A stretch of DNA of 64,000 nucleotides from Nannocystaceae bacterium ST9 (lineage in GTDB: Bacteria; Myxococcota_A; Polyangia; Nannocystales; Nannocystaceae), in assembly GCA_048320885.1 (NCBI GenBank), contig JBLWFJ010000001.1:1477642-1541641 (forward strand), read 5' to 3'. The notes beneath the pieces were generated by a model that saw nothing but the letters and a program-made list of their open reading frames with translations, made no database searches and was not told where the DNA came from. Positions 838-16,903 of this stretch are shown piece by piece. Position 1 is the first letter of the stretch. Each line of letters begins with the position of its first letter. The translations under genes and the position numbers were made by a program.

Positions 838-1302
838 ATGCGCCTGCAGCCTTGCCCCTCGTGTGGTCGCCATGTCCGGGTCGCCGACGGTGACTGCCCC
901 TTTTGTGGCGCGGGCCTGACCACGTCCGCGCCCGGCTGGCTCTCGATCGCCCTGTTCGGGCTCGCGTTGGTCGGCTGCGATGCCAAGCCCGAGCCCACGA
1001 AGAAGGAAGACACCAAGACCAAGGCCGACGCGCCGCAGCCCGAGCCCGCGCAGCCCGAGCCGGCCAAGCCTGAGCCCGCCCAGCCCGAGCCGCCGCCGGA
1101 GCCTTCGACCTCGACGACCACGGGCGCACCCGCCGAGGGCACGACCAGCACCACGGGCGCCGACGACGGGGCCACCACCGCGCAAGAGCCGGTGGTCGAT
1201 GACCCGCCGATGAAGCCCAAGTACGGCGCGCCGCGGCCCGACCCGCGCCCGGCCAAGAAGTACGGCGCGCCGCCCAAGCCCGACTCCGACTCGCTCGACT
1301 GA
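838..1302 (+). CDS. zinc-ribbon (CPSC...CPFC) protein with membrane anchor and Pro-rich PEPAQPEP and KYGAPxPDP repeats
   Basis: N-terminal CxxC-x14-CxxC ribbon, then a hydrophobic segment (LSIALFGLALVGC), then low-complexity Pro/Thr-rich repeats. Stop TGA overlaps the ATG of the downstream radical SAM gene (tgATGg). Confidence 0.55.
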   Translation: MRLQPCPSCGRHVRVADGDCPFCGAGLTTSAPGWLSIALFGLALVGCDAKPEPTKKEDTKTKADAPQPEPAQPEPAKPEPAQPEPPPEPSTSTTTGAPAEGTTSTTGADDGATTAQEPVVDDPPMKPKYGAPRPDPRPAKKYGAPPKPDSDSLD

Positions 1303-2576
1303 TGGCCGGCTCGCTCCCGATCGCCTCGTCGACGCCCGCGCGCCTCCGCCTGCCGCTCGCGCCCGACCTGCGGCCCCGCGATCGCGTGCGACCGCAGTAC
1401 GCGGTCTGGGAGATCACGCTGCGCTGCGACCTGGCCTGCAAGCACTGCGGCAGTCGAGCCGGGCGGGCGCGGCCCGACGAGCTGAGCACCGACGAGGCGC
1501 TCGATCTGGTCGCGCAGATGGCCGAGCTCGGCGTCGAAGAGACGACGATCATCGGCGGCGAGGCCTACCTGCGCGACGACTGGCCGACGATCGCCGCCGC
1601 GCTGACGGCCGCCGGCATCCGCTGCTCGATGACCACCGGCGGGCGAGCGCTGACGGCCGAGCGAGTCGCGGCCGCCAAGCAGGCCGGGGTCGAGACGGTC
1701 TCGGTCTCGATCGACGGGCTCGCCGACACCCACGACCACCTGCGCGCGCTCGCGGGCAGCCACGCCGCGGCCCTGCGCGCGCTCGAGCACCTGCAGGCCG
1801 CCGAGCTGCCGCGCTCGGTCAACACCCAGATGTGCGGGGTCAACCTCCGCGAGATCGAGCCGCTGCTCGAGACGCTCGCGCGCTTCGAGATCCACAGCTG
1901 GCAGGTCCAGATCACCGTGGCGATGGGCCGCGCCGCCGATCACCCCGAGCTGCTCTTGCAGCCCTGGCAGATGCTCGAGCTGATGCCGCTGGTCGCCCGC
2001 GTGCACCGGCGCTGCGAGCAGCTCGGCATTCGCCTGTGGCCGGCCAGCAACATCGGCTACTTCGGCCCCTACGAGGCCCTGCTTCGCCACGATCACCGCG
2101 ACGGCCACCAGACCGGCTGCGAGGCGGGCACGCGCACGCTCGGCATCGAGGCCAACGGCGACATCAAGGGCTGCCCCTCGCTGCCGAGCCGCGACTACGT
2201 CGGCGGCAACGTCCGCGAGCATCGCCTGCGCGAGATCTGGGAGCGGGCCGACGTGCTGCGCTTCAATCGCGAGCCGCGTGTCCACGAGCTCTGGGGTCAC
2301 TGCGGGACCTGCTACTACGCCGACACCTGCAAGTCGGGCTGCACCTGGACCGGCCACGTGCTCTTCGGTCGGCGCGGCAACAACCCCTACTGTCACCACC
2401 GCGCGCTCGAGCTGCTGCGCGCCGGTCGACGCGAGCGGATCGAGCTGGCCACGCCCGCGCCCGGGCTGCCCTTCGATCACGGCGAGTATCGCTTGGTCGA
2501 GGAAGACTGGCCGAGCGCGCTGCTCGAGCGGGCTCGCGCGGTCGCGAGCTCGGGCGAAGGTTGGATCGACGAGTGA
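1302..2576 (+). CDS. radical SAM/SPASM-domain protein (peptide-modifying maturase-like)
   Basis: CDLACKHC motif (CxxxCxxC). C-terminal Cys-rich SPASM-like region (GCEAG...CPSL...HCGTCYYADTCKSGC). Tightly coupled to upstream and downstream genes. Confidence 0.85.
   Translation: MAGSLPIASSTPARLRLPLAPDLRPRDRVRPQYAVWEITLRCDLACKHCGSRAGRARPDELSTDEALDLVAQMAELGVEETTIIGGEAYLRDDWPTIAAALTAAGIRCSMTTGGRALTAERVAAAKQAGVETVSVSIDGLADTHDHLRALAGSHAAALRALEHLQAAELPRSVNTQMCGVNLREIEPLLETLARFEIHSWQVQITVAMGRAADHPELLLQPWQMLELMPLVARVHRRCEQLGIRLWPASNIGYFGPYEALLRHDHRDGHQTGCEAGTRTLGIEANGDIKGCPSLPSRDYVGGNVREHRLREIWERADVLRFNREPRVHELWGHCGTCYYADTCKSGCTWTGHVLFGRRGNNPYCHHRALELLRAGRRERIELATPAPGLPFDHGEYRLVEEDWPSALLERARAVASSGEGWIDE
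2441..2498. repeat. 58-bp direct repeat, copy 1 (3' end of radical SAM CDS); partner at 3966..4023
   Basis: gagctggccacgcccgcgccc[g/a]ggctgcccttcgatcacggcgagtatcgcttggtcg is present twice with one mismatch. Confidence 0.8.
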
Positions 2577-2579
2577 GTC

Positions 2580-3827
2580 ATGGCCCTGCCGATCGAGCCC
2601 GACGAGTGCGAGTGGCTGATCGATCGGACGGCCGAGCTCGTCGCCGCGGTCGGCTGGCGCGGCTACGTGTCGGCGCCCCTGGTGCTGCCCGACGCGCAGA
2701 GCTTCCCCGAGCCCTGGACGGCCGACGCTCGCGCCCTGCGTCGGCTGGCCCGGCGTCTGCTCGCGTACGCCGGGCTCGGCCAGCTCGGCGTCGAGCTCGA
2801 GCTGTTCGAGGGTGAGCGCGAGCTCGAACTCGACGCCCAGGGTCGCGACCGAGTCGTCGGTCATCAAGGTGCGGCTGCGTGGTTCGCCGGCATCGTCGAT
2901 GGCGTGTGCCAGTTCGGCTGCGAGGTCGATCAACTCCGCGATCCGATCGGCGTGGTCGGGGCGATGGCCCACGAGGTCGCCCACGCGTTTCGCCGACACC
3001 ACGCGATCGAGGTCGAGGACACCGATCTGGAGGAGCGGCTGACCGACCTGACCTCCGTGTATCTCGGCTTCGGCGTGCTCACGACCAACGCCGCGCTCCG
3101 CCACCGCTCGTACGGAAACGACGACGGCCTGATGCTGGGTCACCGCTGGACTCGCAACCAGCTCGGCTACCTGCCCGCGGCCGCGATGGCGTACGCACTG
3201 GCGCTCTGGCAGCTCGCGCGTGGCGACGACGAGCACGAGGCCAAGGCGATCCGCCGCGCGCTCGAGATCAACCAAGCGGCGTGGTTCAAGACCTCGCTCG
3301 CGTCGCTGCGCAAGCGAAAAGCCTCGCTCGCGCTGCTTCGCGAGCTGCCCGCGCGCGAAACCTGGCCGAAGCGACCCGAGCTCGGCGAGCTCGCGCTCCC
3401 CGACGCGGAGGACGACGACGCGGCCGAGCCGAACGACGACGCCGAGCCGAACGCCGACGACGAGCCAGGGATCGTGTTTCGAATCCGCGGTCGCCGAGCG
3501 TGGGGCCAGGGGAACGTCGGATTGGTCGCCGCCGGCGGCGGGATCCTGGTCGCGATGATGGGCGGATCCTCGACATGGTTCGTCGCCGCGTTCGCGCTCG
3601 TCGGTGGCGCGCTCGCCTATGGCTTCGAGCCGATCGGCTACTGCTCGGACCCCGACTGCGATCGCAACATCGGCCCGAGCGACGTGGTGTGTCCGGGCTG
3701 CCGCCGCCGGATCGCCGGCGAGATCAGCCACCGCAAGCATCGGCTCGCCGCCGAGGAGGCCGTACTCGAAGGACGCCCACTGCCGGGCGCGAACCCGATG
3801 ATCAACGAGCCCCCAGGCGACGAGTGA
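2580..3827 (+). CDS. HExxH (HEVAH) putative zinc-metallopeptidase-like membrane protein with C-terminal CxxC...CxxC zinc ribbon
   Basis: AHEVAHAF motif. Two predicted TM helices near the C-terminus (GLVAAGGGILVAMMGG / FVAAFALVGGALAYGF), followed by CSDPDC...CPGCRRR. Starts 4 nt after the radical SAM stop. Confidence 0.55.
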   Translation: MALPIEPDECEWLIDRTAELVAAVGWRGYVSAPLVLPDAQSFPEPWTADARALRRLARRLLAYAGLGQLGVELELFEGERELELDAQGRDRVVGHQGAAAWFAGIVDGVCQFGCEVDQLRDPIGVVGAMAHEVAHAFRRHHAIEVEDTDLEERLTDLTSVYLGFGVLTTNAALRHRSYGNDDGLMLGHRWTRNQLGYLPAAAMAYALALWQLARGDDEHEAKAIRRALEINQAAWFKTSLASLRKRKASLALLRELPARETWPKRPELGELALPDAEDDDAAEPNDDAEPNADDEPGIVFRIRGRRAWGQGNVGLVAAGGGILVAMMGGSSTWFVAAFALVGGALAYGFEPIGYCSDPDCDRNIGPSDVVCPGCRRRIAGEISHRKHRLAAEEAVLEGRPLPGANPMINEPPGDE

Positions 3828-3837
3828 TCGGATCTCG

Positions 3838-3962
3838 TCAAACTTGCGAGACCCTTGGGAAGCGCTTGCGAAGACGAGGCCCCGCGAGCCTGGATGGCCC
3901 CCGAGCGAAGAATGAATGAGCGAGCGAACGCGAAGCGAACAGACGCGAAGCGCTTGCGAGGA
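3838..3962 (-). repeat. GC-rich interspersed repeat (REP/MITE-like family), inverted orientation
   Basis: Its reverse complement matches the 'cctcctcgcaagcgcttcgcg..ttcgcttcgcgttcgctcgctcattc' core seen at 6330-6400 and 53270-53330. Confidence 0.7.
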
Positions 3963-3965
3963 GGG

Positions 3966-4023
3966 GAGCTGGCCACGCCCGCGCCCAGGCTGCCCTTCGA
4001 TCACGGCGAGTATCGCTTGGTCG
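3966..4023. repeat. 58-bp direct repeat, copy 2 (encodes ELATPAPRLPFDHGEYRLV, a duplicate of the radical SAM C-terminus)
   Basis: Near-identical to 2441..2498. Together the copies flank the HExxH gene plus a REP-like element. Confidence 0.8.
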
Positions 4024-4096
4024 GTGCGACGACGGGTCGCACGACGAACTGACGCAGGGGACACGACGCTCGGGCTCGCGTGTTAGTAGGGCCGCG

Positions 4097-5038
4097 ATGT
4101 CGCTCGTACGCTCGAAGGTCCTCTCGCTCACGATGCTCGCCCCGCTCCTGTCGGGCTGCCCCGCCGAGGAGCCGCCGATGGAGCCGTTCAGCCTGCGCTT
4201 TGCCGCCAGCGCCGACGGACAGGAGGTCGGCTGCGGCAGCGAGATCACCGGGCTCGGGCCGATGGGGCAGCATGTCGTGCGGCCCGCGGATCTGCGCTTC
4301 TACGTCAGCAACCTGCAGTTCTTCGACGCCGCGGGCGAGCCGATCGAGCTCGAGCTCGACCAAGACGAGTTTCAGTACCGCAGCGAGGCCGGCGAGGTCG
4401 CGCTGGTCGATCTGACCGGCACCGTCGATGGCGCCTGCTCGGCCTCGGCGATCGCCTTCGCCGAGGGCACCGCTCGCACCCACACCGCGATCACCGGCAA
4501 GACCCACGTCGATCACGTGGCGCGGATCAGCTTCGAGGTCGCCGTCCCGCAGCGGCTCATGCAGGAGACGATCGCCGCGAGCACGGCCGAGGCCGCCCCC
4601 TCGCCGCTCGCCGAGCTGTACTGGTCGTGGGCGACCGGCTACCGCCACTTCGTGTTCAACTTCGAGGTCGACGCCGGCGGAGAGCTCGGCGGCGGCTACC
4701 TGCACATCGGCAGCCGCGACTGCGGAGTCGAGGGCTCGCTCGCGCTCGAGGACCGCGACGAGTGCGGGTTCATCAACAACCCGGCGGTCGAGCTCGACGG
4801 CTTCGACCTGCGCGCGAACACGGTCATGCTCGACATCCCCGCCCTGCTCGCCTCGCTCGACTTCATCTCGCCGATCTACGACCCCGAGACCTTCGAGCCG
4901 ATCGGCGAGGGTCCCGGGGTCGAGTGCCACTCGTCCCCGATGCAGCCCGACTGCGAGACGATCTTCACCAACGTCGGCCTCGACATGGCGTCCGGCAGCG
5001 CCAGCGCGACCGCCAACGCCGTGTTCTTCGGAGGCTGA
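4097..5038 (+). CDS. MbnP-like / 'metallo-mystery pair' four-Cys motif periplasmic protein
   Basis: Signal peptide with lipobox (LLSGC) and conserved Cys pairs. Immediately upstream of, and almost abutting, a di-heme CCP-like gene (stop TGA 5036-5038, next start GTG 5040). Confidence 0.55.
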   Translation: MSLVRSKVLSLTMLAPLLSGCPAEEPPMEPFSLRFAASADGQEVGCGSEITGLGPMGQHVVRPADLRFYVSNLQFFDAAGEPIELELDQDEFQYRSEAGEVALVDLTGTVDGACSASAIAFAEGTARTHTAITGKTHVDHVARISFEVAVPQRLMQETIAASTAEAAPSPLAELYWSWATGYRHFVFNFEVDAGGELGGGYLHIGSRDCGVEGSLALEDRDECGFINNPAVELDGFDLRANTVMLDIPALLASLDFISPIYDPETFEPIGEGPGVECHSSPMQPDCETIFTNVGLDMASGSASATANAVFFGG

Positions 5039-5039
5039 C

Positions 5040-6200
5040 GTGGATCGGCTCGCGTCGCTCATCGCCCTGCTCTCCACGCTCGTGGCCTGCGAGTCGCCCG
5101 AACCGGACGACCCGAGCGAGGTCGACGACGCGGCCCTCCGCGAGCTGCTCGGCGTCCCCGACCACTTCGTGACGCCGGCGATCCCGGCCGGCAACCCGCC
5201 GACGGCCGAGAAGATCGAGCTCGGCCGCCGGCTCTTCCACGACCGCCGGCTCTCGGGCAACCAGACCCAGTCGTGCGCCGACTGTCACCTGCAGGAGCTG
5301 GCGTTCAGCGACGGCCTGACGACCCCGACCGGATCGACCGGCACGCTGCTCGAGCGCAACAGCCAAGGCCTCGCCAACGTCGCGTACCTGCCCTCGCTGA
5401 CCTGGGCGAGCGACGGGCTGCTCGAGCTCGAGCAGCAGATCCACGTGCCGCTGACCGCCGACGCGCCAATCGAGCTCGGCGTGACCGACGGCATCCGCGA
5501 CGAGGTGCTCGCGCGCTTCGAGGACGACCCGGAGTACGCGGCGATGTTCGCCGCCGCGTTCCCGGACCTCGCGGGCGAGATCACGCTCGATCACGTCGTG
5601 TTCGCGCTGGCCAGCTTCTGTCGCACCTTGATCAGCGGCGCGAGCCCCTACGATCGCTTCTTGGCCGGCGACGAAGCGGCGCTGACCGAAGAGCAGCGGC
5701 TCGGCATGAGCCTGTTCAACGGCGAGCGCTTCGAGTGCTTCCACTGCCATGGCGGCATCAACTTCACCGCCGCCTACCGCGACGCGCGGCACGATCCTGC
5801 GGACCCGCGCCTGGTGTTCTTCAACAACGGCCTCTACGACGTCGACGGCGAAGGCAGCTACCCGGCCCACGATCAGGGCCTCTACGAGCTGACCTTCGAC
5901 CCCGACCACCGCGGCCTCTTTCGCCCGCCGAGCCTGCGCAACGTCGCGCTCACCGCCCCCTACATGCACGACGGCAGCATCGCGACCCTGCGCGAGGTCG
6001 TCGAGCACTACGCCGCAGGCGGCCGACTCATCACCGAAGGCCCCAACGCCGGCGACGGTCGAGTCAGCCCGCTCAAGTCGGGCCTGGTGCGCAGCTTCGA
6101 AGCGAGCGACGAAGAGATCGACGCCGTCGTCGCCTTCCTCGAAGCGCTCACCGACGAGTCGTTCGTGACCAACCCCGCGCTCGCCGACCCCTTCGAGTGA
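5040..6200 (+). CDS. di-heme cytochrome c peroxidase-family enzyme (MbnH-like, MXAN_0977-type)
   Basis: Two CxxCH motifs (CADCH, CFHCHGG) with spacing typical of the CCP/MauG fold. N-terminal signal/lipobox. Confidence 0.8.
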   Translation: MDRLASLIALLSTLVACESPEPDDPSEVDDAALRELLGVPDHFVTPAIPAGNPPTAEKIELGRRLFHDRRLSGNQTQSCADCHLQELAFSDGLTTPTGSTGTLLERNSQGLANVAYLPSLTWASDGLLELEQQIHVPLTADAPIELGVTDGIRDEVLARFEDDPEYAAMFAAAFPDLAGEITLDHVVFALASFCRTLISGASPYDRFLAGDEAALTEEQRLGMSLFNGERFECFHCHGGINFTAAYRDARHDPADPRLVFFNNGLYDVDGEGSYPAHDQGLYELTFDPDHRGLFRPPSLRNVALTAPYMHDGSIATLREVVEHYAAGGRLITEGPNAGDGRVSPLKSGLVRSFEASDEEIDAVVAFLEALTDESFVTNPALADPFE

Positions 6201-6202
6201 GG

Positions 6203-6580
6203 GGGGTCTGGTTTGATGGAGGGCGTTCCGCCGCCCTCCCCCGTGCCGAGCAAGCTCGTCACGGGTCCCCCTCCTCTGGTTTTTCTGGAGGCCCTTCCGC
6301 GGGCCTCCCCCGTGCCGGCGGAGCCGTCACGGGTCCCCCTCCTCGCAAGCGCTTCGCGCCTGTTCGCTTCGCGTTCGCTCGCTCATTCCTTTGCTCGGAG
6401 GTGAGCCAGGCATCGCATTCGCTCGCTCATTGCTTTGCTCGGAGGTGAGCCAGGCATCGAGCCTGGTCGCTTCGCGCTCGCTCATTCCTTGCTCGGAGGT
6501 GAGCCAGGCTTCGGGCTTGGTCGCTTCGCGTTCGCTCGCTCGGCGCGATCGCGTTCGCTCGCTCAGTGGAAGATCTCGTG
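6203..6580. repeat. composite GC-rich repeat block: two tandem hairpin units (ggaggSc-ttcc-gScgccctcc ...gtcacgggtccccctcctc) plus a ~40-nt unit x3 (cgctcgctcattcctttgctcggaggtgagccaggcatc)
   Basis: Direct inspection of the sequence. Shares a core with the repeats at 3838-3962, 33640-33990 and 53218-53420. Confidence 0.8.
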
Positions 6581-7678
6581 GCCGAGGCGCTCGAGTTCGG
6601 CGAGGGTGTCGGGGGGATCGACGTGGCGTGGGGCGGTCCAGATTCGCAGGCCTGGGCGGCTGGTCGCGATCGCGTCGATCGAGCGGCGGGTGCGGTGGCC
6701 GAGCTCGTGGATGCCGGCGTAGGTGGTGCACAGGCGATCGACGACGGCCCGGGCGGCCTCGCTCTCGCCGAGCTGGGCGAACACGGCTCGCTCGATTCGC
6801 TCGCGCGCCGGTGGGTCGGGCAGCTCGGCGTCGGTCCGGTTGAGCAGCACGGCGTCGATCCGCAGGCCGTAGGCGGCGAGCTGGTCGAGGAACTCGCGGG
6901 CCTCGCGAGCGGAGAAGGGTGAGGCGGTGGTCACCAGCAGCACGCCGGTCGCGGGGCTGCGCAGCAGTCGTTCGAAGTCGCCGCCGCGACGGTGGAACTC
7001 GCCGAGCACCTCGGCGAACTCGCGCAGGAAGGCGCCGAGGTCCCCGATGAAGTCGCCGCCGCCGATCTGCCGGAGCGTCTTGCCGAGCACCGAGCCGCCG
7101 AGCCCGAGGATCTTGGCGCCGACCCGGCCGGTCCCGGCCAGCAGGCGCGCGCCGGGGTTGTCGATCAGCTCGCGGACCTGCTTGGGCGCGTCGAGGAAGT
7201 CGATCGCGTTGGCGGTCGGCGGGGTGTCGAGGACGATCAGGTCGTGCTCGCCGGCGTCGTGGAGCATCTGAACGCGGGCCATCGCGGCGAACTCGAGCGC
7301 ACCCGAGAGCCGCTGGGCGGTCGCGCGATAGATCCGACTGGCGAGGATCTTGTCGGCGCTGGCCGGGTTGCTCGCGCAGGTGCGGACGATCGTGTCGAAC
7401 ACCTTGGCGCCGTCGAGCACGAGCGCGTCGAGGTGGCCGCCCTCGCGCCGGACCGGGACCAGCTCGCCGGTTCGTCCGCGCGCGTCGAGTCCGAGCGCCT
7501 GGGCGAGTCGGCGCGAGGGATCGATGGTCACGACCGCGACCTTGCGACCCTGGCTCGCGGCGTAGAGCCCGAGCGCGGCGGCGCTGGTGGTCTTGCCGAC
7601 GCCACCGGGGCCCACGCACAAGACCAGCTCGCGGCCGGGGAAGGGCAGGGAGGATCCTGTGGACGGCCTAAGGGGCAT
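6563..7678 (-). CDS. ArsA/GET3-family anion-transporting ATPase (SIMIBI P-loop)
   Basis: Deviant Walker A GPGGVGKTT. Start placed at the internal Met (MPLRP). The longer ORF reaching 7714 would overlap the divergent biotinyl-protein gene. Confidence 0.7.
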   Translation of the reverse strand: MPLRPSTGSSLPFPGRELVLCVGPGGVGKTTSAAALGLYAASQGRKVAVVTIDPSRRLAQALGLDARGRTGELVPVRREGGHLDALVLDGAKVFDTIVRTCASNPASADKILASRIYRATAQRLSGALEFAAMARVQMLHDAGEHDLIVLDTPPTANAIDFLDAPKQVRELIDNPGARLLAGTGRVGAKILGLGGSVLGKTLRQIGGGDFIGDLGAFLREFAEVLGEFHRRGGDFERLLRSPATGVLLVTTASPFSAREAREFLDQLAAYGLRIDAVLLNRTDAELPDPPARERIERAVFAQLGESEAARAVVDRLCTTYAGIHELGHRTRRSIDAIATSRPGLRIWTAPRHVDPPDTLAELERLGHEIFH

Positions 7679-7697
7679 GCAATAACCTCCCGGCGCG

Positions 7698-8252
7698 ATG
7701 GCGGCCGAATCCAACCCCAGCGGCTATCGGATCCGCGTCGGCGAGCGCGAACATCGAGTCGAGATCCTCGCTGCGAGCGAGGGCCAGCCGCTGCGCGTGC
7801 GGGTCGACGGCCACGAGTTCGAGGTCGCGAACGCGGGCGTGCACGCGCTGCGCGTGGCCCCGCAGTCCGGCGAGGATCGTCGGCAGCTCGAGGTCACGCT
7901 CGCCAGCGATGGCGGCCGCGCGAGCGAGGCCTGGCTGTCCGGCACGCGGGCCAAGCTCGCGGTCCAGACCGAGCGCGAGGCTCGGCTCGCGGCCGCGCTC
8001 GGCAAGTCCTCGGCCGGTCACGGCAGCGGCGAGCTGCTCGCCCCGATGCCCGGCCGCGTGGTCAAGGTCGGCATCGCGCTCGGCGATCGCGTCGAGCGAG
8101 GCGCACCGATCATGATCGTCGAGGCCATGAAGATGGAGAACGAGCTGCAGGCCCCGATCAGCGGGATCGTGCGCAGCATCGCCGTGCAGGCCGGCGCCGC
8201 GGTCGATGCCAACCAGGTGCTCTGCGTGATCGAGCCCGAGCCGGCCGCTTGA
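7698..8252 (+). CDS. biotin/lipoyl attachment domain protein (BCCP-like)
   Basis: C-terminal biotinyl-domain consensus: IMIVEAMKMENELQAP...VLCVIEP. Confidence 0.65.
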   Translation: MAAESNPSGYRIRVGEREHRVEILAASEGQPLRVRVDGHEFEVANAGVHALRVAPQSGEDRRQLEVTLASDGGRASEAWLSGTRAKLAVQTEREARLAAALGKSSAGHGSGELLAPMPGRVVKVGIALGDRVERGAPIMIVEAMKMENELQAPISGIVRSIAVQAGAAVDANQVLCVIEPEPAA

Positions 8253-8259
8253 GCGCCGC

Positions 8260-9228
8260 TCAACCATCGGCCACGCTCCCGGGCTCGCGCCCACCCTCGA
8301 TCGCGGCGAGCAGCTCGGCCACGCGATCGAGCCCGTCGACACCCCAGGGCCACCAGGGCACGGTCAGCAGATCGGACCCGTCGCTCGGGTGGCGGCCGAG
8401 CCAGTCGGCGACGACCTGGGCTTGATCGTCGCCGCGCTGCCCGACCCGCGCGACCGCGGCGAACATGCGCGCGAGCGATCCGTCCTCGTCGAGCTCGCTC
8501 GCGGGCGGCTCGAGCGAGACGAACTCGCGCGGCCACAGCTTGTTGACCACGCGCGCGCCCACGCTCAGGCCGACCTCGACGCGCAGCGCCTCGGCCAGCT
8601 CGGCGAGCTCGGTCAGCGGCCAGATCTCGGGCAGCCCGACCAGCACCGCCTGACTGATCGCCGCGTCGCCGAGCGCCGCGCTGATCGCCGCCGCCTCGCG
8701 AGCGAGCGGACCTTCGGCCACGGTCTCGACGATCGCCCGCGGCACGCCGAGCACCAGCCGCAGGTGACCCGAGGCCGGACCGTCGAACACGACGACGTCG
8801 TGGCTGCGCGCACGCACGGCCTCGTGCCAGACCTTGCCGAGCACCGCGAAGTCGTCGAACCCGGGGATCGCCCGCAGCAGCCGCCGCACGACCTTGTTTC
8901 CAAACACCGCGTGCGAGAGCCGGTGGCTGTGGGTGACCAGCGCGCCGTACTCCTCGGCGCAGGTGGCCGGGACCAGCCGCTGGATCGAGAGACCGGGGGC
9001 GACCTCGACCGGCACGTCGGGCAAGCGCTCGCCGCCGAGCATCCACGCCAATCGATCGTCGTGGCCCGTGGTCGCGATCAGCACGCGTCGGCCTCGAGCC
9101 GCCAGCGCCATCCCGAGCAGCGCCGCCACGGTGGTTCGTCCGACCCCGCCCTTGCCGCTGACGATCAGCAAGCGACGAGCGCCGAGCTGCTCGAAGAGCT
9201 CGGCAGGCGGGCGTGGCTGCTCCGGCAC
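8260..9228 (-). CDS. ArsA-family ATPase (second copy)
   Basis: Walker A GKGGVGRTT. Same family as 6563..7678. Confidence 0.7.
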   Translation of the reverse strand: MPEQPRPPAELFEQLGARRLLIVSGKGGVGRTTVAALLGMALAARGRRVLIATTGHDDRLAWMLGGERLPDVPVEVAPGLSIQRLVPATCAEEYGALVTHSHRLSHAVFGNKVVRRLLRAIPGFDDFAVLGKVWHEAVRARSHDVVVFDGPASGHLRLVLGVPRAIVETVAEGPLAREAAAISAALGDAAISQAVLVGLPEIWPLTELAELAEALRVEVGLSVGARVVNKLWPREFVSLEPPASELDEDGSLARMFAAVARVGQRGDDQAQVVADWLGRHPSDGSDLLTVPWWPWGVDGLDRVAELLAAIEGGREPGSVADG

Positions 9229-9436
9229 CGGGCGGAAGGTGGCACAGCCGGAGTGAGCGAACCAGGGCGAAGCGCGAGGCGAGGGCAGCCGACGACTTGC
9301 CGAGCTCCGCTCGCCGACTCACCCTGCCGGTCGGGCCTTGACCGACGAGAGGGGCTTGCACGATCGTGCTCGTCCGCTCGCGCTCCCGTCGAGGAGCTCG
9401 CGTCGAGCGACGCGCCCATGGCGCCCAGGAGACACC

Positions 9437-10222
9437 GTGCCGGTCGAAATCAAGAGCAAGGAAGAAATCACCAAGATGCGGGCCACCTGCACGCTGGCCG
9501 CGTCGGTGCTCGACTTCATTCGGCCGCACGTGCAGCCGGGCGTGACCACCAACGCGCTCGACAAGCTCTGCCACCAATACATCCTCGACCACGGGGCCTA
9601 CCCCGCGCCGCTCAACTACAAGGGCTTCCCCAAGTCGATCTGCACCTCGGTCAACGAGGTGATCTGTCACGGCATCCCGAGCGACGACAAGGTCCTGCGC
9701 GACGGCGACATCATCAACATCGACATCACGACGATCCTCGACGGCTACTTCGGCGACACCTCGGAGATGTTCGCGGTCGGCGAGATCAGCGACGAGGCCC
9801 AGCACCTGATCGACGTGACCCGGCAGTCGATGTGGCTGGGCATCCTCGAGGTCGCGCCCAACAAGCGGATCGGCGACATCGGGGCCGCGATCGTCGAGTT
9901 CGCCCACGCCAAGCACAGCTACGCGGTCGTCGAGGCGTTCTGCGGGCACGGGATCGGCCGCGAGTTCCACATGGCCCCGCAGATCCCCCACGTCGGCAAG
10001 CGCGGCAACGGCATGCGCGTGCGACCGGGCATGACCTTCACGATCGAGCCGATGATCAACCAGGGCACCCCGCACTGCACGATCCTCGACGACAACTGGA
10101 CCGCGATCACCCGCGACGGCAAGCTCAGCGCCCAGGTCGAGCACACGATCCTCGTGACCGACGAGGGGTACGAGGTGCTGACCATGCGCGAGAGCGCTTG
10201 GCGTCCTTCCGACGCTCGCTGA
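9437..10222 (+). CDS. map: methionine aminopeptidase type I
   Basis: Collinear with E. coli MAP: KSKEEITKMR, the metal-ligand region CHGIPS..DGDIINIDIT..., EHTILVT. Start taken as the in-frame GTG that matches the family's N-terminus. Confidence 0.85.
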   Translation: MPVEIKSKEEITKMRATCTLAASVLDFIRPHVQPGVTTNALDKLCHQYILDHGAYPAPLNYKGFPKSICTSVNEVICHGIPSDDKVLRDGDIINIDITTILDGYFGDTSEMFAVGEISDEAQHLIDVTRQSMWLGILEVAPNKRIGDIGAAIVEFAHAKHSYAVVEAFCGHGIGREFHMAPQIPHVGKRGNGMRVRPGMTFTIEPMINQGTPHCTILDDNWTAITRDGKLSAQVEHTILVTDEGYEVLTMRESAWRPSDAR

Positions 10223-10240
10223 CGCCTTGCGTCAGAAGGC

Positions 10241-12361
10241 TCAGTTCCAGGTCGGCAAGAACGACTGCTCGCGGCCGTACTCGAGCATCTGCTCGGTGAA
10301 GTCGGCCGGGTAGTCGATCCGCACGTCGACGATCTCGTCGCCCTCCATGACCGGGACCAGCCGCGGCTGAAGGAACCCGGCGTAGGGCGCGATGCCCAGT
10401 CCGGCGTAGCGGCGCAGCACCTGCTCGTGCAGATCGCGATCGACCTTCACGCCGTAGGTCTCGATCAGCGCCTTGCCGGCCGCGGTGTCGCCCTGCGACT
10501 TGATCCGCTGGATCTCGCGCAGGAGCTGGCCGAAGAGCGCGCGCAGCTTGGCGTAGTCGCGGATCACGAAGAAGGTCTCGCCCTCGCGCTCGAGCTTCTC
10601 GATCACGTTGTCGGGCTTGCCTTGCTCGTAGGCCCAGAGCGCGACCAGCTGGCGGTTGCGCATGTGCGACTCTTCGAGCTGCTCGCCGAGTTCGAGCCGC
10701 GAGAGCTGGATCAGCAGGCCGTTGCGGACGTAGCTGTCGTACTCGGCCTTGCCGACCTCGAGCGAGGGCATCAGGCCGAGCTCGACCAGCTTGGGATCCA
10801 TCACGTAGTAGAGCGCGACCAGATCGGCGCGGGCCTCCTCGAGTGCGCTGGCGTGGGCGCCGAGCGTCTGTTTGGGCGTGCCGACGCCGGGCTCGAGCTG
10901 GCCCGAGGCGTGGCCGATGACCTCGTGCATGTCGACGTGCAGCTTGGCGGCGAGCGGCCCGAACTGCTCGGCCCGCTCGCGCTCCTCCGGCGAGGCGCAG
11001 AACTCCTCGAGCACGCCGCCGCCGGCCCGCCCGAAGTCGTAGGCCTCGACGATGTTGCCGAGGTTGACCGACTTGCTGCCGTGCTTGGTGCGGATCCAGT
11101 TGGCGTTGGGCAGGTTGATGCCGATCGGCGTGCTCGGGGCCGCGTCGCCGGCCTCGACGACCACGGTCACGACCTTGGCCGAGATCCCGACCACGTCGGG
11201 CTTCTTGTGGGCGTCGATCAGCGGCGCGTTGTCTTCGAACCACTGGGCCTGCCCGGCGATCGTCGCGATCCGCTTGGTCGCCTCGGCGTCCTGGAACGAG
11301 ACCACGCCCTCCCAGGTCCCGCGGTAGCCGATCGCGTCGTCGTAGACCTCGATGAACCCGTTGATCGTGTCGAAGCGCGACTGCGTGTCGGCGACCCAGG
11401 CGACGTTGTACTCGTCGAACTTGCGCAGGTCGCCGGTCTCGTAATAGGCGATCAGCAGCTCGAGCGCGCGCTTCTGTTCGGGGGTCTCGGCGATCGCGGC
11501 CGCCTTCGCCAGCCAGCCGATGATCTCGCGGATCGCCGGCCCGTACATGCCCTGCGCCGACCAGACCTGCTCGACCAGCTTGGCCTTCTTGCCCTTGCCC
11601 TCGCGGACGAGCTTCGAGTTCAGGCCCAGCGAGATCGGCTCGGGGTCGTTGGGGTCGAGCTGCTTGGCGTAGAACTTCTGGACCTCGGCGGCCGTGATCC
11701 CGGGCGCGTAGAAATTCGACGCCGAGTCGGCGACCGGGTCGGCCCCCTCGTCGCGGTTGGTCCGCTTGGCCGCGATCTTCGGGTCGAAGATCATCGGGCC
11801 GATCGTCGCGAGCAGGGCGTCGACGCTCTCGCCCTCGCGCAGCGGCAGCAGGGCCGGATCGAGGCTGCGCACGGCCTGCTCGAACCACGCCTGGGCGAAG
11901 CCGGGCTCGAGCTTCTTGCTCGAGTAGTGGTGGTGGATCCCGTTCGAGAACCACACCCGCTTGGCGTACTCGTGCAGGGCCATGAACTCGGGGCCGGCGC
12001 GCTCGCCCTGCCAGTGCTCGACCAGGGCGTCGAGCGTGCGACGGATCGCCAGGTTGCCGGCGTACTTCTGATCGTAAGTGATGTCGCGGCCGGCCAGCGC
12101 GGCCCGGTAGAGGTAGTAGGCCAGCCGCTTTTGCTCGATCGGCAGCTCGGCGAAGCCGGGCACGCGATAGCGGAGGACCTCGACGTCGGCGAAGCGATCG
12201 ACCGACCAGTCGAACTCGGGCTGCAGATCGACCGGCGGATCCTCGTCGGGCGTCTCGACGCGGGTGTCGGGCGGCTCGGTGTTCGGCTTGGTCTCGCAGG
12301 CGAGCGAGGTCGGGAGCGCGAGCGTGAGCAGGAGGGCGAACGAGAGACGCGAGGTCGACAC
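10241..12361 (-). CDS. M49-family (dipeptidyl-peptidase III-like) zinc peptidase, lipoprotein
   Basis: HEVIGH ... EEARADL (HExxGH + EExxAE) zinc-binding pair. Lipobox LPTSLAC. Confidence 0.7.
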   Translation of the reverse strand: MSTSRLSFALLLTLALPTSLACETKPNTEPPDTRVETPDEDPPVDLQPEFDWSVDRFADVEVLRYRVPGFAELPIEQKRLAYYLYRAALAGRDITYDQKYAGNLAIRRTLDALVEHWQGERAGPEFMALHEYAKRVWFSNGIHHHYSSKKLEPGFAQAWFEQAVRSLDPALLPLREGESVDALLATIGPMIFDPKIAAKRTNRDEGADPVADSASNFYAPGITAAEVQKFYAKQLDPNDPEPISLGLNSKLVREGKGKKAKLVEQVWSAQGMYGPAIREIIGWLAKAAAIAETPEQKRALELLIAYYETGDLRKFDEYNVAWVADTQSRFDTINGFIEVYDDAIGYRGTWEGVVSFQDAEATKRIATIAGQAQWFEDNAPLIDAHKKPDVVGISAKVVTVVVEAGDAAPSTPIGINLPNANWIRTKHGSKSVNLGNIVEAYDFGRAGGGVLEEFCASPEERERAEQFGPLAAKLHVDMHEVIGHASGQLEPGVGTPKQTLGAHASALEEARADLVALYYVMDPKLVELGLMPSLEVGKAEYDSYVRNGLLIQLSRLELGEQLEESHMRNRQLVALWAYEQGKPDNVIEKLEREGETFFVIRDYAKLRALFGQLLREIQRIKSQGDTAAGKALIETYGVKVDRDLHEQVLRRYAGLGIAPYAGFLQPRLVPVMEGDEIVDVRIDYPADFTEQMLEYGREQSFLPTWN

Positions 12362-12434
12362 GCGCGAGGCGTGCCACCCGACCCCGCGCGAGTCAAGCCA
12401 CTCGATTCAGGCCACCCGCTTCAGGCCACCCGCT

Positions 12435-13556
12435 TCAGGCCCCGAGAGTCGAGCCCTGCGCGTCGGGCATGCGCAGGTCCTCGAACTGCGCGTAGACGAA
12501 TCCGAACTCGCGGCGAATCGCCTCGTCGGAGAGCCCGAACGCGGCCGCCGAGTAGCGGTGCTGCGAGGCGTAGTCGCCCTGCTTGCCGGCCTGCTCGCGC
12601 AGCAGCAGCTCGGTGGCCGCGTCGAGCTCGATGTCGAGGAAGCGAGCGACGCGGGTCATCGTGCCCTCGAAGTCGCTGAACAGGCTCGGATAGGTGAGGA
12701 TCAGCGTGTCGGACTCGGCCCGGCGAGCCTCGACGCAGAGCCGGCGATAGTAGACCGCCGAAGTCCGGACCAGGTTGTCGAAGTAGCGCTTGCGCAGCGA
12801 CTCGCTCTGCGCGTCGATGTCGTTGATCCGGCGCTGGATCCCGTGCTCGAGCGAGCACATCGACACGACCGACTCGACCGGATCGCGGACGATCAGCAGG
12901 AACTTCGCGCCGGGGAACTGCGCGCGGACCTGGTCCATGTTGAAGAGCAGGCAGAACGACTTGCTGAACATCCGCAGGCCGCTGCGGTGGACCGCCCGGC
13001 GATAGACCGCGGCCAGGTAGCGGACGAAGCGGGGCTTCTCGACGGTCTCGGCCAGCGCCCGCTCGAACGCCGCGTCGTCGGGGTACTCGCGCCAGGCGTG
13101 GAAGTAGATCCACGAGAGCAGCCCGTCGAAGTAGCGCATCGAGAGCGCGATGTCGTCGGTCTCGGCCGCGAAGAACCCGGTCTCGTGGATGTTGGGATCG
13201 TAGACGCGATCGAAGGACACCCGCTGCATGAAGCGCAGGAAGGGCCGCAGCAGCAGCCGAGCCGTCAACGCCGGAAACACCATCTCCCACAGCAGCAGCG
13301 AGCGAAACGGGAAGGTCTCGGTCAGCCAGCGGTGCAGGAAGGTCGTGCCGCTGCGCAGGTGGCCGATCAAAAACACCGGGCGATCGAGCGGCGTCCGGAC
13401 CCCGCGAGGAAAGAACAGGTGATCGAGCGCGAGCGTGAGCGCGGTGAACGAGGTCAACGCGATCCGAAACCCGAGCAGGCCGAGCTGGCGCCAGCGAAAC
13501 CCGAACACCTCGATCAGCAGCAGGACGACGCGGAAGCTGTTGATCAGCCCGGTCAT
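12435..13556 (-). CDS. membrane-anchored sulfotransferase (PAPS-dependent family)
   Basis: 5'-PSB-like LIGHLRSGTTFL and 3'-PB-like RDPVESVVS motifs. N-terminal hydrophobic helices. Start ATG overlaps the stop of the upstream type III PKS (ATGA). Confidence 0.7.
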   Translation of the reverse strand: MTGLINSFRVVLLLIEVFGFRWRQLGLLGFRIALTSFTALTLALDHLFFPRGVRTPLDRPVFLIGHLRSGTTFLHRWLTETFPFRSLLLWEMVFPALTARLLLRPFLRFMQRVSFDRVYDPNIHETGFFAAETDDIALSMRYFDGLLSWIYFHAWREYPDDAAFERALAETVEKPRFVRYLAAVYRRAVHRSGLRMFSKSFCLLFNMDQVRAQFPGAKFLLIVRDPVESVVSMCSLEHGIQRRINDIDAQSESLRKRYFDNLVRTSAVYYRRLCVEARRAESDTLILTYPSLFSDFEGTMTRVARFLDIELDAATELLLREQAGKQGDYASQHRYSAAAFGLSDEAIRREFGFVYAQFEDLRMPDAQGSTLGA

Positions 13557-14629
13557 TGCGCTTCCCACTCGTAGAGCGCGGCGCCCATGTAGTAGCCGGC
13601 CCCGAACGAGACGATCATGCCCTTGCGCCCGTGCTTGCCGGACGGGTCCTCGGCGAAGAAGCTGTCGAGCACGAACAGGCAGCTCGGCGCGCTGAAGTTG
13701 CCGTGGCGCCGGAAGAGTCGGGTCGCGCGATCGAGCTGGGCGCTCGACAGCCCGAGCAGCTCGGGCTTGCGGAACTCGGCGAGGATCGGCAGCCCGCCTT
13801 GGTGCATCGCCCACTCGTCGATCTCGCCGACCTCGAGCCCATGCCGGGCGAGCATCGGTCGGATCAGCCGCTCGCTGACCATGCGCGGGACCTCGTGCCT
13901 GAGCTCGTCGGTGAACACCAGCCGGCCCGCGTCCATCCACACCGACGCGCCCGGCACGAAGTCGCAGGCGACGTCGAGCAGGCGCATCAGCGGGCGTCGA
14001 AAGGCCCGCCGCAGCGAGCGAGGCGCGAGCAGCAGGCCGGCCGCGCCGTCCGAGAAGAGCAGGCTGGTCCGCAGGTGCTCGCGAAAGTCGACCTGCGCGG
14101 GATCGCGGACCGGATCGACGATCCACGAGCACTGATCGAACACGCAGAGCGCGGCCAGTCGCTCGCGCTCTCGACAGTAGCGAAACCCGCTCTCGAGCGA
14201 GAAGAGCCCGCCGGCGCAGCCGTAGAACGCCCGCTCTTCGGGCGGCACGTCGAGCGCCAGCGGGACCGCGCTGGCGACCTGGGCCGCGAGGCTCGGCAGC
14301 AGGTCGGCGCTCGACGAGACGTTGTAGGCCACGCCGAGGAAGCCGATGTCGCGCGCGACCGGGCTCGAGGTCGACAGCTCCTCGACCATCCCGCGGCACC
14401 ACTCGAGCGGTCGATACTCCGGGCGCGCCAGGGTTCGATTCGGGAACGCGTCGGGGTCGAGCACCGACGAGCGCGACTCGATGCCGACGACCTGGGCCGC
14501 GCGTCGGGCCAGTCGATTGATCCGGCCCTGCGCGAGCGAGGGCGGATAGAGCACGTCCATGCACTCCTCGGGGCTGAACAGCCGCGGGAGCCGGGTGGTG
14601 ATCCCGGCGATGTAGACTGCGTCCGACAT
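13553..14629 (-). CDS. type III polyketide synthase (chalcone/stilbene synthase family)
   Basis: Catalytic triad contexts match CHS: GCAGG (Cys), WAMHQGGLPIL (His), GNFSAPSCLFVLD (Asn). Confidence 0.8.
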   Translation of the reverse strand: MSDAVYIAGITTRLPRLFSPEECMDVLYPPSLAQGRINRLARRAAQVVGIESRSSVLDPDAFPNRTLARPEYRPLEWCRGMVEELSTSSPVARDIGFLGVAYNVSSSADLLPSLAAQVASAVPLALDVPPEERAFYGCAGGLFSLESGFRYCRERERLAALCVFDQCSWIVDPVRDPAQVDFREHLRTSLLFSDGAAGLLLAPRSLRRAFRRPLMRLLDVACDFVPGASVWMDAGRLVFTDELRHEVPRMVSERLIRPMLARHGLEVGEIDEWAMHQGGLPILAEFRKPELLGLSSAQLDRATRLFRRHGNFSAPSCLFVLDSFFAEDPSGKHGRKGMIVSFGAGYYMGAALYEWEAQ

Positions 14630-14779
14630 GCGCCTGCTCGGGTCGGCGATTGGAGCATGAACCCGAGAGCGGGTGCCAGCACGCGTGCGCGCGCGGACAG
14701 GCCAGTCCTCACGCCCTGCGCGATTCGATTTGTCGACGGAAGCGCGACGAGCCCAATCGCGCTTCCATCGAGTTCGCGG

Positions 14780-15877
14780 CTACATCGCCAACGGCACGCA
14801 GGTCGAGACGCCCGCGCCGACGATCCGGATCGGCGCCTGCGCGACCACGGTCGAGAGCGCCTTGGTGTCGTCGTAGTCGTAGTGCGTGACCTTCGAGAAG
14901 GTCGGGTTGTTGCCCTCGGTGAACAGGTAGAAGTCGCCGCCGTAGAACCCGAACGCGAACGCGTTGGTCAGGTTCATGTTGAGCTGCTCGACCGCGATCA
15001 CCTGCGCGTTGGACTTGTCGTACTCGACCAGCTTGGCCGGCGCGCCGGCGAACGCGAAGAGCCGGCCGTCGCCCGTGCCGGTCAGCTCGCCGCCGTTGTA
15101 GTCGATGAAGTCGATCTCGGTCATCGTCAGGGTCTCCGGGTCGAGCCGCCCGAGCCGCCCGGTGTTCGGGCCCTCGGTGAACCCGCCCTGGCCGTTCCAG
15201 CTGTGCGCGTAGAGCTTGTCGCAGGGATCGAACTGATCGTTGGACACGAAGCCCATGCCGAACTTGTTGAACCCGAGCTGACCCGGCTGGTACATCGGGT
15301 CGAGGCACATGTTCGGGTTGTTGACGTCGATCGTGTAGATGTCGTCGTTCTGGAACATCACGTGGGCGATGCCGTTGCGATCGACCGACATCGAGAACGC
15401 CTGATTCTGCGGGCAGCCGAGGTTCGCGGCGATCATCGCGAACTGGTTGTTGACCGGGTCGTAGCTCCACAGCTCGCCGTCGTCGGACAGCACGTAGATC
15501 AGGTCGGTGTTCTCGGCGCAGTCGCAGATCGGCATGCCGGTGTCGGTGCCCGAGTCGGTGCCCGTGCCCGAGTCCGTGCCCGAGTCCGTCGACGAGTCCG
15601 TCGACGAGTCCGTGCCCGAGTCCGTCGACGACGAGTCCGTGCCCGAGTCCGTCGACGACGAATCCGTGCCCGAGTCCGTGAGCGAATCCGTACCGGCGTC
15701 CGTGCCAGAATCCGACGAGCCGCTCTCGCTCGCCGACGAGCTCGACTCTTCGGCGGTCGAGCCCGAGTCGCTGTCGGTGTCGCCGACGTCGTCGTCGGGC
15801 TCGCTCGGCTCGTTGCCGCAGCCGAGCAGAGAGAAGGTCGTAGTCAAGGAGAGTGGAACGAGCCAACCGAGTCGCAT
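14780..15877 (-). CDS. secreted lipoprotein with Ser/Thr/Asp-rich linker, unknown function
   Basis: Signal peptide with lipobox LLGC, (SGTDS)n low-complexity linker, then a Cys-containing globular domain. The long alternative-frame ORF 14709..17543 was rejected. Confidence 0.5.
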   Translation of the reverse strand: MRLGWLVPLSLTTTFSLLGCGNEPSEPDDDVGDTDSDSGSTAEESSSSASESGSSDSGTDAGTDSLTDSGTDSSSTDSGTDSSSTDSGTDSSTDSSTDSGTDSGTGTDSGTDTGMPICDCAENTDLIYVLSDDGELWSYDPVNNQFAMIAANLGCPQNQAFSMSVDRNGIAHVMFQNDDIYTIDVNNPNMCLDPMYQPGQLGFNKFGMGFVSNDQFDPCDKLYAHSWNGQGGFTEGPNTGRLGRLDPETLTMTEIDFIDYNGGELTGTGDGRLFAFAGAPAKLVEYDKSNAQVIAVEQLNMNLTNAFAFGFYGGDFYLFTEGNNPTFSKVTHYDYDDTKALSTVVAQAPIRIVGAGVSTCVPLAM

Positions 15878-15982
15878 GCCGCACCCTATCACGAGCACGA
15901 TGCGGGGTGGCCGTGTCGTCGAGAGCGGCGCGACGAGCGACGAGCTCGCTGACGAGGCGAGCTCGCGATGTCGCAGTGCCAA

Positions 15983-16903
15983 TCAGCTGGGCCGGCGCTC
16001 GGTCAACGCTCGGATCAGCCAGCGCCCCGCGGGCCCGGGCGGCGCAGCGGCGCGATGCAGCAAGAGCATCTCGACCAGATAGGGTTCGCTGCCCCACTCG
16101 CTCACGACGATCCGCGCGAGCCGACCGGACGCGAGCTCGTCCTCGATCATGTGCGCCGGCATGTTGCCCCAGCCGAAGCCCGCGAGCAGGCAGGCCTGCT
16201 TGGCCGGCAGATCGGCGAGCCGCCAGTTGTTGTCGCCGGCGACCGACATGTCGAGACCGGCCGTCAGCGGCGAGCGATCGGTGAGCACCAGCTGGGTGTG
16301 GCTGCGGACCTCGGCGAGCCCGAGCGGCCCGGTCGTGCGCGCGAGCGGGTGGTTGGTCGCGCAGACCGTGACCAGCTGGATCGGCCACAGCGGCGTGCGC
16401 TCGAGCCCCGGCGGGAACTCGGGCAGCGGCTCGCTGATCCCGAAGTGGACCACGCCCTCGGCGACCAGCTGCGCGACGGCCCCGAGCGCCTCGGTCCGCA
16501 GATGCAGCGGCACGGTCGGATACTCGCGGCGAAACGCCGCGAGCACGTCGAGCAGGATCGCCATCGGGAAGAAGGGATCGACCGCGATCGCCAGGCGCGG
16601 CTCGACCCCCTCGCGCAGCTGACGAGCGCGCGCGAGCAGACGATCGACGCGGGCGTCGACCATGCGGGCGTCGTCGAGCAGCGCGCGGCCGGCCTCGGTC
16701 AGCACCGGCTTGCGACCGTTGCGATCGAAGAGCTCGAGCTCGAGCAGGCGCTCGAGGTTGGCGATCGCGTAGCTGATCGCCGACTGAGCCCGGGCGAGTC
16801 GCTTGGCCGCGCCCGAGAAGCTGCCGGTCTCGACGATGGCCAGAAACACCGAGAGCTGGTCGAGGGTGATGGGCTCGCTGGTCACGGTCGCCATGTTCGG
16901 CAT
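15983..16903 (-). CDS. LysR-family transcriptional regulator
   Basis: N-terminal wHTH (LDQLSVFLAIVETGSFSGAAKRLARAQSAISYAIANLE) plus a LysR substrate-binding domain. Confidence 0.85.
   Translation of the reverse strand: MPNMATVTSEPITLDQLSVFLAIVETGSFSGAAKRLARAQSAISYAIANLERLLELELFDRNGRKPVLTEAGRALLDDARMVDARVDRLLARARQLREGVEPRLAIAVDPFFPMAILLDVLAAFRREYPTVPLHLRTEALGAVAQLVAEGVVHFGISEPLPEFPPGLERTPLWPIQLVTVCATNHPLARTTGPLGLAEVRSHTQLVLTDRSPLTAGLDMSVAGDNNWRLADLPAKQACLLAGFGWGNMPAHMIEDELASGRLARIVVSEWGSEPYLVEMLLLHRAAAPPGPAGRWLIRALTERRPS

Follow-up and report, generated by a model that had tools for sequence, protein, structure and literature searches.

Two adjacent genes in a 64,000-nucleotide stretch of the Nannocystaceae bacterium ST9 genome (contig JBLWFJ010000001.1, positions 1,477,642 to 1,541,641 of the forward strand; hereafter the window, with positions counted from its first nucleotide) encode an MbnP family protein and an MbnH family di-heme enzyme. 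In our judgement the pair probably constitutes a coupled lipoprotein module, in which MbnH makes a kynurenine at Trp176 of MbnP and MbnP binds a metal, most likely copper. The pair is an ordinary member of a family that is known, named, modelled and structurally characterised, and its annotation value is ordinary too, since standard pipelines would already name both genes. The added interest lies in a His-type metal site without a solved structure, in a lipoprotein format without a transporter, and in signs of mobility of the 2.2-kb unit. Copper binding at kynurenine-dependent sites has been recognised in bacteria only recently, and only one MbnP, of the Met type, has been solved; the window protein stands in a sizeable branch of the family that has different predicted ligands, is usually lipid-anchored and is encoded in a bare two-gene unit without a transporter. 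This makes the locus a compact test case for two questions: whether kynurenine chemistry extends beyond His/Met Cu(I) sites, and what the pairs do in bacteria that are not methanotrophs.

In the mechanism that we propose, translationally coupled mbnP and mbnH would give rise to two exported, lipid-anchored envelope proteins. MbnH, with one five-coordinate, peroxide-reactive heme and one His/Tyr-ligated heme, would be brought by H2O2 to a high-valent state and would oxidise Trp176, the first Trp of the WxW motif of MbnP, to kynurenine. Kyn176 would then complete a mononuclear site, most likely a copper site, by which MbnP would bind periplasmic copper and either hold it or hand it on. The site is predicted to consist of His203, His278, probably His184, and Kyn176, and would not be the His/Met/Kyn site of the crystallised Methylosinus protein. 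That kynurenine is formed, that the metal is copper and that H2O2 is the oxidant are proposed by analogy with characterised homologues. The mbnPH module is self-contained and appears to have moved; here it lies within a lineage-specific insertion flanked by dispersed repeats.

Two coupled genes of the MbnP and MbnH families

The features of the unit are as follows.

4022–4096, plus strand: conserved 5′ leader of the mbnPH unit; nucleotide homology to three related contigs (L001, L002 and L008) begins at 4022
4097–5038, plus strand: mbnP, 313 aa, ATG start (from the open reading frame (ORF) listing)
5030–5034, plus strand: GGAGG ribosome-binding site of mbnH, 5 nt before its GTG and within the last mbnP codons (read from the sequence)
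5040–6200, plus strand: mbnH, 386 aa, GTG start, stop codon 6198–6200 (from the translation)
6188–6205, plus strand: terminator-like hairpin overlapping the mbnH stop codon

Since the G+C content of the whole window is 69.6%, long spurious ORFs are abundant in it. A gene caller based on codon position (codon bias), however, independently selected exactly 4097–5038 and 5040–6200, and the ATG at 4097 is the first possible start after an in-frame stop; together with family matches far above chance, the sequence evidence indicates that both ORFs are genuine. As an earlier reading of the window, made from the sequence alone, had pointed out, the two genes are 1 nt apart: the junction reads GGC TGA c GTG, with the stop at 5036–5038, the c at 5039 as the sole intervening nucleotide and the GTG at 5040–5042. 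The leader begins with the palindrome GTGCGAC-N5-GTCGCAC (4024–4042). Within its 75 nt we found neither an Rfam match in a search for riboswitches and known RNAs nor a sigma-70 consensus, and its folding energy is no better than that of shuffled sequences (z = 0.25).

The sequence-only reading had named the two proteins MbnP and MbnH, had proposed to score them against the NCBIfam models TIGR04052 and TIGR04039, and had held that the second protein would be just a generic periplasmic peroxidase if the first missed the MbnP profile. At the curated cut-offs both identities are borne out. The mbnP product scores 190.3 bits against TIGR04052 (MbnP family copper-binding protein; E=3.9e-56; cut-off 140 bits) and the mbnH product scores 475 bits against TIGR04039 (MbnH family di-heme enzyme; E=1.2e-142; cut-off 362.85), while the score of the latter against the MauG model TIGR03791, 159.8 bits, falls below the cut-off of 443.85. 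In Pfam, the mbnP product belongs to PF20243 (MbnP; 82 bits, cut-off 27) and the mbnH product to PF03150 (CCP_MauG). A search of the Protein Data Bank (PDB) with the mbnP product returned MbnP of Methylosinus trichosporium (7L6G) as the sole match (E=3.7e-20, 31.6% identity); with the mbnH product the top match was MbnH 6E1C (E=2.7e-106, 48.5% identity), canonical peroxidases matching at E of about 1e-40 and MauG at about 1e-20. An AlphaFold2 model of MbnP (pLDDT 83.9, pTM 0.83), when searched with Foldseek, hit only the six chains of 7L6G (E of about 1e-15, TM-score 0.60–0.67), the next hit being at E=0.04. The earlier description of such pairs as functionally unresolved is dated, for MbnP is a characterised copper-binding protein whose site requires MbnH-dependent kynurenine (PMC11951088); the same reading had itself stated that the pair is linked to copper handling in methanotrophs and that MbnH has been reported to turn a Trp of MbnP into kynurenine.

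Both di-heme motifs reported in that reading, CADCH and CFHCHGG, are present in MbnH: CADCH at residues 79–83 (5274–5288) and CFHCH, followed by GG, at residues 233–237 (5736–5750). The inter-heme Trp is Trp122, which aligns with the peroxidase Trp. Tyr324 (6009–6011) aligns with Tyr294 of MauG and, in 2C1U, a canonical peroxidase from Paracoccus, with a Met. MauG-type enzymes are told apart from canonical ones by having His and Tyr, as opposed to His and Met, as ligands of the second heme (PMC11892367). By alignment, then, MbnH is predicted to have MauG-type His/Tyr ligation at its second heme and, because Tyr324 occupies the E-heme ligand position where 2C1U has Met, would be of the MauG type and not a canonical peroxidase. 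MbnH is among the enzymes with a verified bis-Fe(IV) state and is thought to install the kynurenine on MbnP (PMC11892367).

These features bear on the most conservative alternative, in which the gene at 5040–6200 encodes a generic H2O2-detoxifying periplasmic cytochrome c peroxidase that happens to stand beside an unrelated lipoprotein. PF03150 includes both kinds of enzyme, and canonical peroxidases do match MbnH at E of about 1e-40, sharing with it the superfamily fold and the heme motifs. They act alone as H2O2 scavengers, however, and have Met where MbnH has Tyr324; MbnH clears the TIGR04039 cut-off by over 110 bits, the product of the upstream gene satisfies the MbnP model, and the pairing is kept in at least 74 of 87 loci from several phyla (see below). 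We regard this alternative as hardly credible. A closer comparison is with MauG and its substrate, pre-methylamine dehydrogenase: MauG, too, has two hemes, the second ligated by His and Tyr, and acts by long-range catalysis to oxidise Trp residues in a partner protein, but the window MbnH fails TIGR03791, and the product of MauG is tryptophan tryptophylquinone, not the kynurenine of MbnP.

The nearest characterised system is MbnP/MbnH of M. trichosporium OB3b (7L6G and 6E1C). It shares with the window pair the profile families, the gene order and the tight coupling, as well as the WxW motif, the invariant His, six Cys, two CxxCH motifs, the inter-heme Trp and the Tyr at the position of MauG Tyr294. 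The window pair, at the identities given above (31.6% for MbnP and 48.5% for MbnH), differs in having no methanobactin or transporter neighbours and in having a lipobox in both proteins; in MbnP, all three Met positions of the OB3b protein are substituted, and the Met conserved in the family is replaced by His278, with His184 in addition.

The presence of two lipoboxes suggests that both products are anchored in the envelope. The N-terminus of MbnP is MSLVRSKVLSLTMLAPLLSGC, with a signal peptide ending in LLSGC and lipobox Cys21 (codon 4157–4159), and that of MbnH is (V/M)DRLASLIALLSTLVAC, with a signal peptide ending in LVAC and lipobox Cys17. The sequence-only reading had been right to call MbnP a lipoprotein, but had limited the term to that protein, and it applies to MbnH as well. 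Start calls of the relatives are imprecise, and we judged their lipoboxes from the alignment and by inspecting N-termini: Cys21 is nearly invariant across the MbnP clade, and most related MbnH N-termini likewise end in a Cys-containing signal peptide. Inner-membrane lipoproteins of Myxococcus xanthus tend toward Lys at position +2. The residues at +2 in the MbnP/MbnH pair are Pro and Glu, and because neither is Lys, anchoring in the outer membrane is weakly suggested for both proteins. MXAN0977, the M. xanthus founder of the MbnH family, has been listed with a predicted periplasmic localisation (PMC3222651).

The predicted metal site of MbnP

MbnP contains seven Cys (residues 21, 46, 114, 209, 223, 277 and 286), namely the lipobox Cys and six that are conserved in the family. 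Conserved Cys had thus been noticed correctly when the protein was described as a four-Cys protein, though their number had been put too low. The WxW motif consists of Trp176 (4622–4624), Ser and Trp178 (4628–4630), which are the sole two Trp of the protein, and the candidate ligands are His203 (4703–4705), His184 (4646–4648) and His278 (4928–4930). The copper site of 7L6G is made of a His, a Met, a solvent ligand and Kyn174; this kynurenine derives from the conserved WxW Trp, its formation needs MbnH, and the W174Y substitution strongly cuts copper binding (PMC11951088). In close homologues the first Trp of the motif stands at 174–176, a numbering that fits Kyn174 being the first Trp. The PNAS 2021 paper on MbnP is said to place the kynurenine precursor at that same residue.

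To compare the ligand positions we aligned 314 homologues, 197 of them relatives of the window MbnP and 117 relatives of the 7L6G protein. Trp176, Trp178, His203 and the six Cys are invariant or nearly so in both sets. Where 7L6G has its three Met (chain indices 147, 180 and 244), the window protein has Leu174, Tyr201 and His278, respectively. When 1.84 billion cluster representatives were searched with a profile, 1,482 clusters were recovered at E<=1e-10, which makes the family a large one; residues were tabulated for the best 150 of these. Trp176, Trp178 and His203 are kept in 147–148 of the 150 (position 203 is His in 147). The three positions aligned with Met behave differently from one another: at position 174, 98 representatives have Met and 50 have Leu; position 201 varies widely; and at position 278, 108 have Met and 22 have His, other residues being rare. 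Because position 278 is the only one of the three that is both conserved and ligand-competent, we infer that this residue, which follows the fifth conserved Cys, is the Met ligand of 7L6G and that His takes its place in the window MbnP.

The identity of residue 278 goes together with that of residue 184. Among the best 150 representatives, the 184/278 pair is Phe/Met in 96, His/His in 19, His/Met in 7 and Phe/His in 1, a co-variation of His184 with His278 that gives p=1.3e-15 in a Fisher test uncorrected for phylogeny. His278 also co-varies with Asn188 (elsewhere Asp or Glu) and with Gln283 (elsewhere Asp). The resulting His-type branch accounts for about 15% of these 150 representative clusters, and its residue pattern places the window MbnP within it, with a predicted site of His203, His278 and probably His184 plus Kyn176. 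As predicted, this ligand set is nearer to the sites of the methanotroph kynurenine copper proteins MopE* and CorA, which consist of two His and a Trp-derived kynurenine (PMC11951088), than to that of the solved MbnP. The likeness is confined to the ligands: the folds are unrelated (PMC11951088), and the window MbnP has no sequence or fold match to either protein.

Conservation of the pair and the question of its role

The nearest relatives of the window MbnP are 94% identical (a metagenome cluster and a Nannocystaceae metagenome-assembled genome), 79% identical and, in Plesiocystis pacifica, 64% identical, followed by many from Polyangia and Myxococcota, a ranking that points to a Nannocystaceae-like myxobacterium as the source. 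We examined 87 related mbnP loci. An MbnH homologue was found in 84 of them, and in at least 74, across several phyla, mbnP is followed by mbnH on the same strand, which confirms the widespread pairing that had been claimed for such genes. The two genes usually overlap by 4 nt or 1 nt or are separated by a few nt.

The neighbours of the pair, unlike the pair itself, are not conserved. None of the 87 loci contains a homologue of any gene that flanks mbnPH in the window. Among 258 genes flanking the related loci we found no recurring transporter, Sco, PCuAC, CopC or regulator: 5 of the 128 upstream genes have a Plug domain, 4–6 genes have histidine-kinase or sigma-70 domains, and no family exceeds 6 of 130 downstream genes. 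A transporter lies directly upstream on the same strand only in two metagenome-assembled genomes of Pseudomonadota. Both Met-type loci that were sampled (n=2) have an adjacent transporter, and one of them has the order DUF2946-transporter-MbnP-MbnH. This arrangement (CruR-type operons) has been reported in a copper-homeostasis setting outside methanotrophs (PMC9426467). The operons of this kind in Pseudomonadota, such as the Pseudomonas aeruginosa locus L090 (DUF2946, TonB-dependent transporter, MbnP, MbnH), contain the same pair in the same order, but theirs is of the Met type and shares its locus with a transporter gene and a copper-responsive leader gene, whereas the window pair is of the His type and has no such partners. 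The missing copper and transport neighbours are thus the rule for the His-type subfamily and not a peculiarity of this locus.

Our scan of the window took in all called genes between 202 and 30476, a further two at 34574–36443 and all ORFs of at least 560 aa. These ORFs include no methanobactin-type family, so that the absence of adjoining methanobactin genes noted earlier holds within them; the neighbours that characterise a methanobactin operon (MbnA, MbnB/MbnC and MbnT) were not found.

Several observations weigh against copper binding as we propose it. Among the scanned ORFs no copper gene and no TonB-dependent transporter gene was found, and no nearby regulator gene corroborates a role in copper handling. 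Judging by the alignment, no Met of the crystallised MbnP is kept in the window protein; because the Met ligand is absent, copper, and above all Cu(I), is less certain here than for the Methylosinus protein. Which Met is the ligand in 7L6G is itself deduced from conservation across the family and should be read with that qualification.

The same observations lend some weight to an alternative in which the maturation chemistry is as proposed but MbnP has another job: a His-rich site, without Met and poor in carboxylates, might take copper in another oxidation state or geometry, or a different metal, and MbnP would serve in sequestration, sensing or redox protection instead of copper acquisition. 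The substitution of all three 7L6G Met positions (Leu174, Tyr201, His278) and the further exchanges in the subfamily (Phe to His184, Asp/Glu to Asn188, Asp to Gln283) are in keeping with such a shift, as are the lack of conserved neighbours around His-type pairs, which rarely have a TonB-dependent transporter where both sampled Met-type loci do, and a peroxiredoxin gene just upstream of the pair in one close relative. However, MopE* and CorA do bind copper with two His and kynurenine (PMC11951088), so the exchange of Met for His is compatible with copper, and NCBIfam treats the whole MbnP family as one equivalog. We consider a different job unlikely, though it is the most serious of the alternatives, and retain kynurenine-dependent binding, most likely of copper, as the preferred reading.

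More broadly, and only tentatively, since we rate it as possible and somewhat short of probable, the window pair may represent a His-type MbnP branch, common in Myxococcota, in which His278 replaces Met, a co-varying His184 is added and carboxylates give way to amides. Such a branch would offer a lipid-anchored site of kynurenine plus histidines without a dedicated outer-membrane transporter, might differ in metal, oxidation state or role, and would here be encoded by a 2.2-kb module that is laterally mobile among Nannocystaceae.

Other genes were seen near mbnPH in particular relatives. In the locus of the 79%-identical relative (L005), an AhpC/TSA peroxiredoxin gene lies directly upstream (9320–9865) and an eCIS_core gene further downstream (16813–17937); L001 has a PARP-domain gene some 2 kb downstream (14304–16040). 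Ten gammaproteobacterial loci (L059, L061, L070, L071, L073, L074, L077, L078, L081 and L082) have a gene of about 400 aa after mbnH on the same strand (about 12100–13400). The family count brought up no Pfam family for this gene, which may be a third conserved partner in gammaproteobacterial mbnPH loci.

Local history of the unit and surrounding genes

The mbnPH unit is 95.1% identical in nucleotides to contigs L001, L002 and L008 over exactly 4022–6200, with unrelated flanks. The shared 2.2 kb extends from 75 nt before mbnP to the mbnH stop codon, and L001 comes from another Nannocystaceae genome. The genes and repeats around the unit are listed below.

838–1302, plus strand: zinc-ribbon/transmembrane (TM)/Pro-rich protein, 154 aa, with N-terminal CPxC...CPxC, a TM segment and a Pro-rich tail
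1302–2576, plus strand: radical-SAM/SPASM enzyme, peptide-maturase-like (TIGR04103, 483 bits, and TIGR03913, 417 bits, both below cut-off)
2580–3827, plus strand: 415-aa protein with an HEVAH motif, a TM region and C-terminal CxxC...CxxC; no Pfam or NCBIfam match
3914–3966, minus strand: core of a dispersed, structured repeat in inverted orientation; matches the reverse complement of 6336–6388 at 98% identity over 53 nt
3966–4023, plus strand: 58-nt partial copy of the radical-SAM gene, from its 3′ end (2442–2499); a direct repeat, 98% identical, directly 5′ of the unit
6213–6570, plus strand: two tandem copies of the double-hairpin repeat (6213–6276 and 6286–6386), then tandem 44/54-nt units
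6563–10222: BagB-like and BagA-like ATPases of the ArsA/Get3 family around a biotinyl/lipoyl-domain protein, beside an M24 peptidase
10219–14779: M49 peptidase, sulfotransferase and KAS-III-like genes, extra in the window relative to contig L088

Contig L088, which belongs to a more distant relative and whose radical-SAM protein is 87% identical to that of the window, is syntenic on both sides at about 80–84% nucleotide identity. In it, the radical-SAM gene is directly followed by the M24-BagA-BCCP-BagB block in the opposite orientation to that in the window, and neither the 415-aa gene nor mbnPH is present. Because L088 keeps this synteny without the 415-aa gene and mbnPH, 2577–6567 is a lineage-specific insertion in the window, with the adjacent block inverted. 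The genes at 838–3827 form an operon-like trio, of which L088 carries the zinc-ribbon gene and the radical-SAM gene but not the 415-aa gene.

Scraps of the radical-SAM gene end lie 5′ of the unit: the 58-nt duplicate in the window and, at the same position in L001 (9848–9926), a decayed remnant of the neighbouring stretch of that gene end. Because such fragments occur in both, the mbnPH unit seems once to have directly followed a radical-SAM gene and later to have moved elsewhere, taking a piece of that gene along. Two explanations of the 95% identity can be considered, lateral transfer of the unit or a closer relationship combined with genome rearrangement. In a contig from the sample that also yielded L002, the radical-SAM orthologue is only 80% identical in nucleotides, against 95% for the unit, and on this account the comparison favours transfer, without proving it.

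The proximity of the radical-SAM gene raises a further alternative, that the genes at 838–3827 supply a substrate of MbnH or a ligand of MbnP, which would make the locus a counterpart of a methanobactin operon for something other than methanobactin. A radical-SAM/SPASM maturase-like gene does lie 1.5 kb upstream on the same strand, and the gene-end fragments, here and in L001, suggest an older direct adjacency. Yet homologues of the radical-SAM gene and of its partners are absent within 10 kb of mbnPH in all 87 related loci, and the syntenic L088 has the radical-SAM gene without mbnPH; on these grounds we rejected a functional link to the upstream genes. Moreover, the two units are separated by a 270-nt spacer filled with repeats, and 3828–4096 contains no convincing small ORF for an MbnA-like precursor. 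We hold such a link to be very unlikely.

Inverted copies of the dispersed repeat, at 3914–3966 and 6336–6388, bracket mbnPH. The double-hairpin repeat folds with z of about −2.5 and shows compensatory stem changes between copies; other copies lie at 53220–53319 of the window (core 53269–53319), at 5624–5850 and 20435–20590 of L088 and at 6303–6413 of L089. It is a dispersed intergenic repeat with two adjacent GC-rich hairpins per copy and a CGCTTCGCG-rich tail, up to 98% conserved between related genomes and REP- or terminator-like in appearance. Tandem arrays of 44/54/69-nt units stand downstream of mbnH.

Farther along the plus strand of the window we noted an AddAB-like gene pair (19866–27235), encoding a PD-(D/E)XK nuclease protein of 1113 aa and then a UvrD-type helicase-nuclease of 1343 aa, and a gene (30645–33356) for a 903-aa protein with Vault_3 and MVP_shoulder Pfam matches, a bacterial homologue of the major vault protein of eukaryotes.

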